From an uncultured Chloroflexia bacterium (GTDB lineage: Bacteria > Chloroflexota > Limnocylindria > QHBO01): 64,000 nt of DNA. The stretch spans positions 64,001-128,000 of the forward strand of contig CAWGTN010000001.1 of assembly GCA_963825525.1 (NCBI GenBank). Direction: 5' to 3'. Below the pieces are notes generated by a model, which saw only the letters and a list, made by a program, of their open reading frames with translations, was not told where the DNA came from and searched no databases. This document shows, piece by piece, positions 62,685-63,125 of this stretch. The translations under genes were made by a program, and so were the position numbers. Position 1 is the stretch's first letter. Every line of letters starts with the position of its first letter.

Positions 62685-63125
62685 ATGAACTACGAGCTGT
62701 ACATGGCCGAGGCGATCGCCGAGGCCAAACGTGGCGGAGAAGAGGGGGAGGAGCCGGTCGGTGCTGTCGCCGTCATCGATGACGCGATGATCGCCCGCGA
62801 CCATCAGCGTGTCGCCCTCGGCGAGGACCCGACGGCGCATGCCGTCCTGCTGACCGTTCAGGCGGCCGCGCGCAAGCTCGGCAACCGCCGCCTGTCGGAG
62901 GCCACGATCTTCACGACCCATGAGCCGTGTGCCATGTGTGTCGGCGCCCTCGTCGAGGCTCGCATCCGCGCGCTCGTGTTCGCGGTCCCGGATCCGGACA
63001 GGGGAGCTGCCGGCGGCGCCATCAACCTGGCACGTGAGTCGGCCATGCCGCACCAGATCTCGGTGGTTTCCGGCGTTCGGGAGAGCGAGGCGCGCCGCCT
63101 CGACATCGCGTCGGCATCGGTCTAG
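62685..63125 (+). CDS. tadA: TadA-like nucleoside deaminase lacking the catalytic Glu (HAV instead of HAE)
   Basis: YMAEAIAEA, E.PVGAV, DPTAHAV, EPCAMC.GAL, GAAGG, SGVRE. Sits at the tadA-SRP RNA-dnaX position. Confidence 0.85.
   Translation: MNYELYMAEAIAEAKRGGEEGEEPVGAVAVIDDAMIARDHQRVALGEDPTAHAVLLTVQAAARKLGNRRLSEATIFTTHEPCAMCVGALVEARIRALVFAVPDPDRGAAGGAINLARESAMPHQISVVSGVRESEARRLDIASASV

Follow-up and report, generated by a model that had tools for sequence, protein, structure and literature searches.

The DNA analysed here, referred to below as the window, is a stretch of 64,000 nucleotides from an uncultured Chloroflexia bacterium of soil (assembly GCA_963825525.1, contig CAWGTN010000001.1, positions 64,001 to 128,000). 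Close to its 3′ end lies a gene for a 146-residue protein, P0001, which resembles TadA, the tRNA(adenine34) deaminase whose substrate is tRNA-Arg(ACG). TadA counts as an essential enzyme of nearly all bacteria, with one task only, and the eukaryotic ADAT2/ADAT3 pair is taken to descend from it. The Glu of the HxE motif is the universal proton shuttle of the deaminase fold; in P0001 the corresponding HAE reads HAV. The features of the locus on which the argument depends are the following, all on the forward strand.

62685..63125, +: coding sequence of the predicted pseudo-deaminase (P0001, 146 amino acids); an open frame, with the N-terminus MNYEL(Y/F)M as a start motif common to the orthologues
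62799..62807, +: D39-H40-Q41, with Q41 in place of the active-site Asn of the TadA 'HN' motif
62838..62846, +: His52 (zinc ligand)-Ala53-Val54, codons CAT GCC GTC, within DPTAHAVLL; Val54 (GTC, 62844-62846) stands where HAE has the catalytic Glu
62925..62939, +: PCAMC, carrying the zinc ligands C82 and C85, in the context HEPCAMC; these columns do not vary in alignment A1, nor within the HAV or HAE groups
63173..63259, +: tRNA-Ser(CGA), immediately 3′ of the pseudo-deaminase gene
63270..63357, +: tRNA-Ser(GGA)
63402..63666, +: large (Bacillus-type) signal recognition particle (SRP) RNA; Rfam RF01854 (Bacteria_large_SRP), 181.5 bits, E = 2.8e-31
63737..64000, +: 5′ part of dnaX, which continues past the end of the window; read on the longer locus L005:2553-3437 it matches NF004046 at 424 bits (cut-off 400) and TIGR02397 at 378 bits (cut-off 250)
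58109..58201, +: tRNA-Ser(GCT), called by ARAGORN; the kept 5′ neighbour of tRNA-Arg(GCG) in three families of relatives (f1, f3 and f4)
58226..58301, +: tRNA-Arg(GCG), called by ARAGORN; a tRNA with G at position 34 (G34) in place of the TadA substrate tRNA-Arg(ACG), with orthologues in relatives

An earlier note on this DNA had described the open reading frame (ORF), the HAV and DHQ motifs, the zinc ligands and the tadA-tRNA-SRP RNA-dnaX position, and the reading frame, tRNA calls, Rfam match and dnaX profile matches bear out every point of that description that could be checked.

We examined the tRNA genes of the whole source assembly (2.58 Mb in 4 contigs, 68.5% GC, 91.84% complete). ARAGORN called 52 of them, with the Arg anticodons TCT, GCG, CCT, TCG and CCG. 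Neither a tRNA-Arg(ACG) nor any other tRNA with an A-initial anticodon was among these 52 genes of a 91.84% complete genome. The CGN codons are served by tRNA-Arg with the anticodons GCG, UCG and CCG, and under the wobble rules a set of G34, U34 and C34 tRNAs reads the whole CGN box without inosine. Arg codon use in 940 long ORFs was 46% CGC, 27% CGG, 12% CGA and 10% CGT. Separately, some ARAGORN calls in this genome were over-long or otherwise unusual, and are perhaps false or tRNAs with insertions: a 97-nt 'tRNA-???' with a four-base anticodon (cgag) at C2:839385-839481, a 92-nt Ala(ggc) at C2:1128563-1128654, a 96-nt Pro(ggg) at C2:1869475-1869570, a 100-nt Ala(cgc) at C3:81726-81825 and, in the window at 2846-2935, a 90-nt Thr(cgt).

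The distribution of the tRNA and of TadA was then compared across 151 genomes drawn from the class (probably Limnocylindria), which fall into five families, f1 to f5, with the source genome in f1. These were scanned with a tRNA-Arg(RCG) pattern, with the protein pattern DPT[A/S]HA[V/E] and with a canonical TadA query (P0272) at E ≤ 1e-30. In f1, tRNA-Arg(GCG) was found in 47/51 genomes and ACG in 0, an HAV-coding gene in 47/51 and a canonical TadA in 1/51. Family f3 gave the same picture (GCG 39/44, ACG 0; HAV 36/44, plus one HAI, in genome G060, whose only pattern match is a GuaD-like gene; canonical TadA 0/44), while f4 had GCG in 6/6 genomes, with the TadA motif in 0/6 and canonical TadA in 0/6. 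The tRNA pattern matched 43/49 genomes of f2 (ACG alone in 40, GCG alone in 2, both in 1), with HAE in 38/49 and canonical TadA in 42/49; the single f5 genome had ACG, HAE and canonical TadA (1/1 each). A specific ACG pattern was matched in 0/37 f1, 0/11 f3 and 0/1 f4 genomes versus 8/11 f2 genomes.

The f2 genome with both tRNA types, G135, is a 76%-complete bin; the two with GCG alone are G039 and G086. A TadA hidden Markov model (HMM) gave nothing above 47 bits in G039 (97% complete) or G086 (86%), and nothing in three f4 genomes. In f2 the ACG tRNA adjoins tRNA-Arg(TCG), and in G039 and G086 that slot holds the GCG tRNA. These look like at least two further, younger switches from ACG to GCG, apparently independent. 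As tadA was not found after either of them, its retention as an HAV gene is the exception. The two GCG tRNA loci are at G039:C26:58182-58350 (L107) and on G086:C21 (L163 1527-1685). All of the class tRNA-Arg(GCG) sequences that were fetched share the anticodon arm ..G-UUGCGGA-C.., extended to ..GG-UUGCGGA-CC.. in all but two or three, and the T-arm of the G039 tRNA is identical to that of f1, with convergence or recombination as possible origins of the match.

Across the phylum, a draw of 401 genomes was searched with the GCG pattern and the TadA HMM (E ≤ 1e-20). The tRNA-Arg(GCG) pattern was present in 297/401 genomes and the HMM matched 88/401, comprising 37 genomes with canonical genes, 37 with HAV genes and 14 with weak matches. 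The 37 genomes with TadA of canonical strength (135-201 bits) are spread over a minority of the families, f9 (16/17), f19 (7/8), f28 (5/5), f26, f56, f61 and f72, and include G037; the GCG pattern was found in none of these 37. Among GCG carriers, full-length TadA-like matches were seen only in f1 (17/17) and f3 (20/23), at 91.5-128 bits, and all of those examined lack the Glu. The 14 weak matches (76-92 bits) mostly cover part of the model, and the few examined are other deaminases. No TadA match was obtained in the large GCG families f11 (0/24), f15 (0/25), f18 (0/12), f21 (0/9) and f22 (0/25). G34 decoding without TadA is therefore the majority state in the sampled phylum, and the only full-length descendant of TadA that turned up together with GCG is the HAV gene. 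In family f24, neither feature was the norm (GCG 2/12, TadA 0/12).

The HAV motif is conserved among the relatives of the source. H-A-V together with EPCxMC was found in 30/30 of the first loci retrieved (28 genomes of the genus, including the source, and 2 of f3, from 61 relatives searched). Of 20 further loci, seven from f3 genomes read HAV, G060 reads HAI and G038 reads HPV, ten from f2 and f5 genomes read HAE, and G039 had a RibD-like match only. H-A-V is thus common to two families, down to 45% identity, counting a few loci cut at contig ends. A set of 121 close database homologues, including the query, contained DPTAHAV in 117, DPTSHAV in 1 and DPTAHAI in 1, with 2 unparsed. The best 150 clusters of a representative all-against-all search divided into 122 HAE, 20 HAV, 6 fragments and 2 regex oddities; five of the six fragments carry the N-terminus of the HAV family, and none of these 150 clusters is of HAV type outside this family. 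Contigs from two independent soil-metagenome studies (X1 and X3) span 62838-62846 without a listed difference, so that the codons agree in assembled contigs, where the earlier note had named raw reads for this check.

Substitution patterns point the same way. We estimated the ratio of nonsynonymous to synonymous substitution rates (dN/dS) by the Nei-Gojobori method, excluding L029, L030 and L032 (broken or cut) and L053 (a run of N). The median was 0.149 for the HAV genes of the genus (0.017-0.315; 300 pairs of 25 sequences), 0.279 for those of f3 (10 sequences) and 0.356 for the canonical TadAs of f2 and f5 (10 sequences). The HAV genes are under purifying selection, and the test proposed with the earlier note, conservation of HAV in orthologues with dN/dS below 1, came out in favour of a maintained gene. 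The Val codon in 35 orthologues is GTC in 21, GTG in 13 and ATC in 1 (Val 34, Ile 1); because this variation is largely synonymous, it is the residue itself that is maintained.

To place the family we built a quick IQ-TREE phylogeny of 58 rows, 18 of them HAV sequences. The HAV sequences are monophyletic (Shimodaira-Hasegawa-like approximate likelihood ratio test (SH-aLRT) 100) on a stem of 0.8 changes per site, and the TadAs of f2 and f5 form a separate clade (SH-aLRT 99); the HAV clade falls among bacterial TadA sequences, with a low support of 52 for its deeper placement. The genomic setting matches that of tadA. Of 30 canonical tadA loci of other families, 16 have tRNA-Ser(cga) within the 3.4-kb locus, many of them directly 3′, and tRNA-Ser(CGA) also lies beside the tadA of f5 and f2. 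The HAV gene lies directly 5′ of tRNA-Ser(CGA), as canonical tadA does in many of these loci, and therefore occupies the tadA slot.

Family and fold comparisons gave a consistent result. P0001 matched the Pfam families dCMP_cyt_deam_1 (8e-22) and MafB19-deam (2e-26). Against NF008113, the NCBIfam TadA equivalog, it scored 116.7 bits, under the cut-off of 150, and so falls outside that family as defined; HAV genes of f1 and f3 scored 91.5-128 bits, canonical relatives 135-201 and P0272 182.7. Its nearest solved relatives are bacterial TadAs (7cph, 2.4e-31; 2b3j, 1.6e-26). The AlphaFold model of P0001 (predicted local distance difference test (pLDDT) 89.5, from a 26-row alignment) superimposes on the solved TadAs 7cph, 2b3j, 1z3a and 1wwr with template modelling (TM) scores of 0.92-0.94 at 36-43% identity, the B. 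subtilis TadA 7cph_A giving 0.94. ESM Atlas matches were confined to ordinary TadA and nucleoside-deaminase clusters. A homodimer model scored 0.90, versus 0.43 for the best of 3 controls, above a mark that in calibration is reached by 20/30 proteins solved as pairs of one chain versus 1/23 single-chain proteins. Three dimer runs had at least 96% of contacts in common, with a partner pLDDT of at least 92, and placed residues 43-50, 52, 55, 58-70, 82-93, 105-106 and 112-122 at the interface. This pass may stem from likeness to solved TadA homodimers, in which case the model speaks for likeness and not for binding. Three properties of a TadA are accordingly present, the fold (TM 0.94), the dimer (as a model only) and the zinc ligands, namely the His (H52) and the two Cys of PCxxC (C82 and C85). 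Five others that were looked for are absent: a score above the NF008113 cut-off, the Glu, the Asn of strand 2, the DPK and C-terminal Phe motifs, and a tRNA-Arg(ACG) in the genome. On these five counts P0001 does not belong to the functional TadA family. Database names for close homologues (79-91% identity) vary: NCBI has 'nucleoside deaminase [Candidatus Limnocylindria bacterium]' or 'Chloroflexi bacterium', and JGI labels the same proteins 'tRNA(adenine34) deaminase'. The NCBI names make Limnocylindria the probable class of the window.

We compared 12 diverse HAV sequences with 40 canonical HAE sequences residue by residue. Positions that are 80-100% conserved in the canonical group and changed or variable in the HAV group are V23 (EVP), N41, E54, R93, N122-H123 and F143-F144. 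E54 is Glu in 100% of canonical sequences. Position 41 is N in 40/40 HAE sequences, and nine of the 12 HAV sequences have D there, the other three having Q, H and E; the 39-41 triplet in the 121 close homologues reads DHD in 79, DHH in 22, DHQ in 15 and DHN in 2, with 3 unparsed. R93 is kept in the genus and is D or E in f3. The DPK lysine is replaced in every HAV row of the printed alignment blocks, with Asp at its position in the source (PDPDRG) and V, I, R, E or A in f3. The FF motif is gone, positions 143-144 being S, A, V or G in the HAV group versus F in 90-95% of canonical sequences. By comparison, HAE, DPK, NH and FF are all retained in 29/30 canonical Chloroflexota TadA loci of other families, the remaining one being unparsed. 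The accessible portions of Iyer et al. 2011 (PMC3239186) list the strand-2 Asn ('HN'), a basic residue after strand 4 and the Phe of the C-terminal helix as TadA signatures, and those of Yokobori et al. 2013 (PMC3711424) name TadA Lys111 and Phe149; the residues lost in the HAV proteins include signatures and anticodon-loop contacts named in these two texts. DPTAH, EPC.MC.GA and G107/A108 are kept in both groups alike. Newly invariant in the HAV group are N2-Y3-E4-L5, E9, A29, A34-M35, T74, L89, A100, A109 and V128-S129.

Searches of the source genome with PF00383 and PF14437 returned P0001 and one Fcy1-like deaminase (HGE ... SPCDMC, about 156 amino acids; G000:C3:67719-68117, minus strand; L002 1351-1821), which is the only other gene with the cytidine deaminase (CDA) fold; a second TadA of HAE type, which the earlier note had proposed to look for, was not found there. 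Genes similar to the Fcy1-like deaminase occur in many relatives. Extra 'DPTAHAE' matches in f1 and f3 genomes were considered as TadA candidates and rejected, the examined ones being guanine-deaminase-like (FDD...IHY/VPY) or other CDA genes, and those in G089, G111, G083 and G100 chance matches in unrelated frames. G085, an f1 bin of genus g24, is the exception. Its 7.6-kb contig C60 (L148 1475-1912) encodes the canonical HAE TadA P0272, with 182.7 bits against NF008113, and then two tRNA-Ser(cga) genes. The HAV gene of this bin is on contig C56 (L149), beside tRNA-Ser(cga) and tRNA-Ser(gga). P0272 shares at most 63% identity with any sampled relative and is sister to f2 and f5 in the tree (support 84). 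Other genes on C60 are 32-63% identical to the source genome, versus 60-78% for two other G085 contigs, although the C60 genes belong to paralogue-rich families. The canonical copy could have entered the bin by contamination, or be left over from a stage with two genes.

The remaining features around the gene are few. A divergent ORF of 174 amino acids lies upstream (62098-62622, minus strand), and a Pfam scan of a 146-residue part of it returned nothing at E ≤ 0.001. A terminator-like hairpin lies at 62558-62572 (plus strand). The promoter and terminator scan found no promoter-like site 5′ of the pseudo-deaminase coding sequence; it did find one ahead of the SRP RNA (63364-63392), as a consensus match only. 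RNA-library contigs from two studies (X15 and X18) omit 74-79 bases within the SRP RNA (window 63464-63544), and such contigs skipping an SRP RNA helix probably come from relatives that lack or replace that helix.

On the basis of these results we consider it likely that the gene is a positional orthologue of tadA that has become a stand-alone pseudo-deaminase, its substrate lost and the gene itself kept by selection. This reading starts from four observations: the loss of motifs, the absence of an A34 tRNA gene from the source assembly, the co-variation of tRNA and TadA across genomes, and purifying selection. Since the searches of f1 and f3 genomes turned up no A34 tRNA gene, the f1/f3 lineage appears not to use I34. 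In the ancestor of f1 and f3, decoding of the CGY codons would have moved from tRNA-Arg(ACG), read as ICG, to tRNA-Arg(GCG), beside UCG and CCG, a switch that would have left TadA without a substrate. Other GCG lineages are simply without tadA, and the f1/f3 lineage would have retained the gene. The retained copy would then have lost the proton-shuttle Glu (to Val or Ile), the active-site Asn and the putative holders of the anticodon loop, that is, the DPK lysine, NH and the C-terminal Phe-Phe. Its zinc ligands and fold would have been preserved, together with the interface seen in the homodimer model, and new invariant positions would have been gained, above all the N-terminal NYEL motif.

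What the protein now does is a more tentative matter. Judged from its residues, it has probably given up both deamination and the canonical mode of tRNA-Arg binding; it may have a new, non-catalytic role as a zinc-bound dimer that binds RNA or protein. The fuller proposal, to which we give slightly less than an even chance, is a partner-less pseudo-deaminase neofunctionalised after I34 was abandoned, a zinc-bound dimer of TadA fold binding RNA or protein through its invariant surfaces, such as the NYEL helix. As its second alternative the earlier note had suggested a repurposed tRNA-binding protein kept after I34 became unnecessary. The second half of that suggestion agrees with the missing A34 tRNA, the co-variation of HAV with GCG and the purifying selection. 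The 'tRNA-binding' label fares badly at the level of sequence, where most anticodon-loop contact residues are changed or variable.

Several findings weigh against the proposal of a maintained, non-catalytic tadA descendant. The frame is broken by a 1-nt insertion in G029 and G014, 2 of the 29 genomes of the genus that have the motif region; these are few-contig assemblies whose low completeness scores suggest indel errors, with real decay as a further possibility, and all other genes recovered in full have an intact frame. G038 of f3 reads HPV, in a locus that contains a run of N. The source genome is 91.8% complete and the relatives are mostly metagenome bins, and in the phylum draw the search for tRNA-Arg covered GCG. 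Either the tRNA or the enzyme may have been the first to change, and GCG may be the ancestral state of the phylum or have arisen repeatedly. All HAV sequences carry an acidic residue at position 39 or 41 (Asp39 in the genus, Asp or Glu at 41 in f3 and G085), and its carboxylate could in principle substitute for the Glu. Contigs from RNA libraries (X15 and X18; the shares of the RNA runs were small, 0.10-0.16) fall almost solely on the tRNAs and the SRP RNA; a single 101-nt RNA contig (X15) covers the 5′ end of the coding sequence (62682-62761) with 8 differences and is no evidence for or against transcription.

The carboxylates bear most directly on the best-surviving alternative, that the protein is still an enzyme and deaminates or hydrolyses another substrate (an RNA site, a nucleoside or a base) with its zinc and Asp39, Asp41 or Glu41. 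The invariant zinc triad and the strong purifying selection would fit such an activity, as would the mRNA editing by canonical TadA that excerpted literature describes for other bacteria. We nonetheless regard it as improbable. The protein lacks the residue that shuttles protons throughout the fold, its anticodon-loop contact residues are gone, and position 41 is free to vary among close homologues (D, H, Q, N) in a way that a catalytic residue is not, which makes it an unlikely replacement base. The accessible part of PMC8216470 also describes mouse ADAT2-E73A as having hardly any activity and yeast Tad2p as inactive with Glu changed to Ala, the mutation of this Glu costing activity in both enzymes.

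A second alternative, somewhat less probable than a surviving enzyme, is the first one raised in the earlier note, in which the HAV protein would pair with an active HAE deaminase from another locus and be the non-catalytic subunit, like ADAT3 in its complex with ADAT2. The convergence with ADAT3 on Glu-to-Val is real. ADAT3 has Val at HxE, a capped zinc pocket and lost tRNA-recognition determinants, as given in the accessible part of PMC8216470, and the HAV proteins share with ADAT3/Tad3 the Glu-to-Val change with the zinc triad kept and the loss of tRNA determinants (excerpts of PMC8216470 and PMC3239186). The G085 bin, moreover, has both an HAV gene and a canonical TadA, and the source genome has its second CDA-fold gene. 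Against a partner stand the near-absence of canonical TadA from f1 and f3 (1/51 and 0/44) and its absence from the PF00383 and PF14437 searches of the source genome. The examined extra HAE-type matches are guanine-deaminase-like or other CDA genes, and no A34 tRNA was found that could serve as substrate for a complex. P0001 is a single domain of 146 residues that aligns end to end with TadA, without the N-terminal tRNA-binding domain of ADAT3, and its homodimer is modelled confidently. The second locus of G085 duplicates the tadA-tRNA-Ser(cga) context and its closest match among the sampled relatives is at 63% identity, which makes contamination a possible source. Descent shared with eukaryotic Tad3 finds no support either. 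Solved ADAT3 chains (mouse ADAT3) match P0001 at 3e-14, far more weakly than TadA at 2.4e-31; because of this, and because the HAV clade falls among bacterial TadAs, the sequences point to an origin independent of ADAT3. The likeness to ADAT3 lies in the way of disabling only, not in the possession of a partner.

That the gene is a neutral relic (a dying pseudogene not yet disrupted) or its Val a sequencing error is very improbable and already contradicted, for although two genomes of the genus carry the frame-breaking insertion and f4 and the two GCG species of f2 have dispensed with tadA once GCG was in place, the dN/dS values of 0.15-0.28, the frames intact outside G029 and G014, the persistence of H-A-V across two families, the clade-specific new invariant residues and the same codon in contigs of two independent studies all argue otherwise.

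A stand-alone pseudo-deaminase descended from tadA, the reading we prefer, can be set beside three known systems. With bacterial TadA (NF008113) it shares the fold, the H and PCxMC zinc ligands, a predicted homodimer and the slot 5′ of tRNA-Ser(CGA), SRP RNA and dnaX; it differs in having Val for Glu and Gln (elsewhere D, H or E) for Asn, in the loss of the DPK lysine, NH and FF, in its 116.7 bits against a cut-off of 150 and in a source genome without tRNA-Arg(ACG). From ADAT3/Tad3 it differs in its probably independent origin, in the missing N-terminal domain and in a genome where neither an HAE partner nor A34 tRNAs were found. The closest parallels on the decoding side are lineages that have given up inosine. 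Yokobori et al. 2013 (PMC3711424) describe loss of tadA in Mollicutes with tRNA-Arg ACG changed to GCG, Ehrlich et al. 2021 (PMC8007984) state GCG in place of ACG for Thermotogae and Spirochaetes, and PMC6063277 mentions that I was lost in Spirochaetes and in one other class of Proteobacteria. B. subtilis tadA (yaaJ) is reported to be dispensable (PMC10454642). As in Mollicutes, Thermotogae and Spirochaetes, decoding here uses G34 and U34 (here also C34) without inosine, with the same link between the ACG tRNA and tadA. In those lineages, as far as the excerpts describe them, tadA was lost or persists as a weakened active enzyme, whereas here a disabled full-length descendant is kept under selection. 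A literature search, to which the supplementary tables of PMC6063277 and PMC3711424 (which may list Chloroflexi TadA) did not belong, yielded no inactive bacterial TadA and no tRNA-Arg set for Limnocylindria.

These findings have consequences for the phylum and for the TadA family. Most of the sampled Chloroflexota decode CGY in the 'archaeal-type' way, with G34, a point that the reviews consulted do not make for this phylum, nor do they name Chloroflexota as a GCG phylum alongside Thermotogae, Spirochaetes and Mollicutes. The phylum thereby offers a natural experiment, in which many GCG lineages are without tadA and one clade has long kept a disabled copy under selection, across two families and with identities as low as about 45%. 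Since JGI names such proteins 'tRNA(adenine34) deaminase', they are also a warning for annotation. The HAV clade appears to be an independent bacterial replay of the Glu-to-Val route by which ADAT3 became a pseudo-enzyme, and provides a test case for what the TadA scaffold does without its chemistry. Should the neofunctionalised reading prove true, this would be the first 'dead TadA' to act alone in a cellular role of its own, and it would have come about through the Glu-to-Val change also seen in ADAT3.

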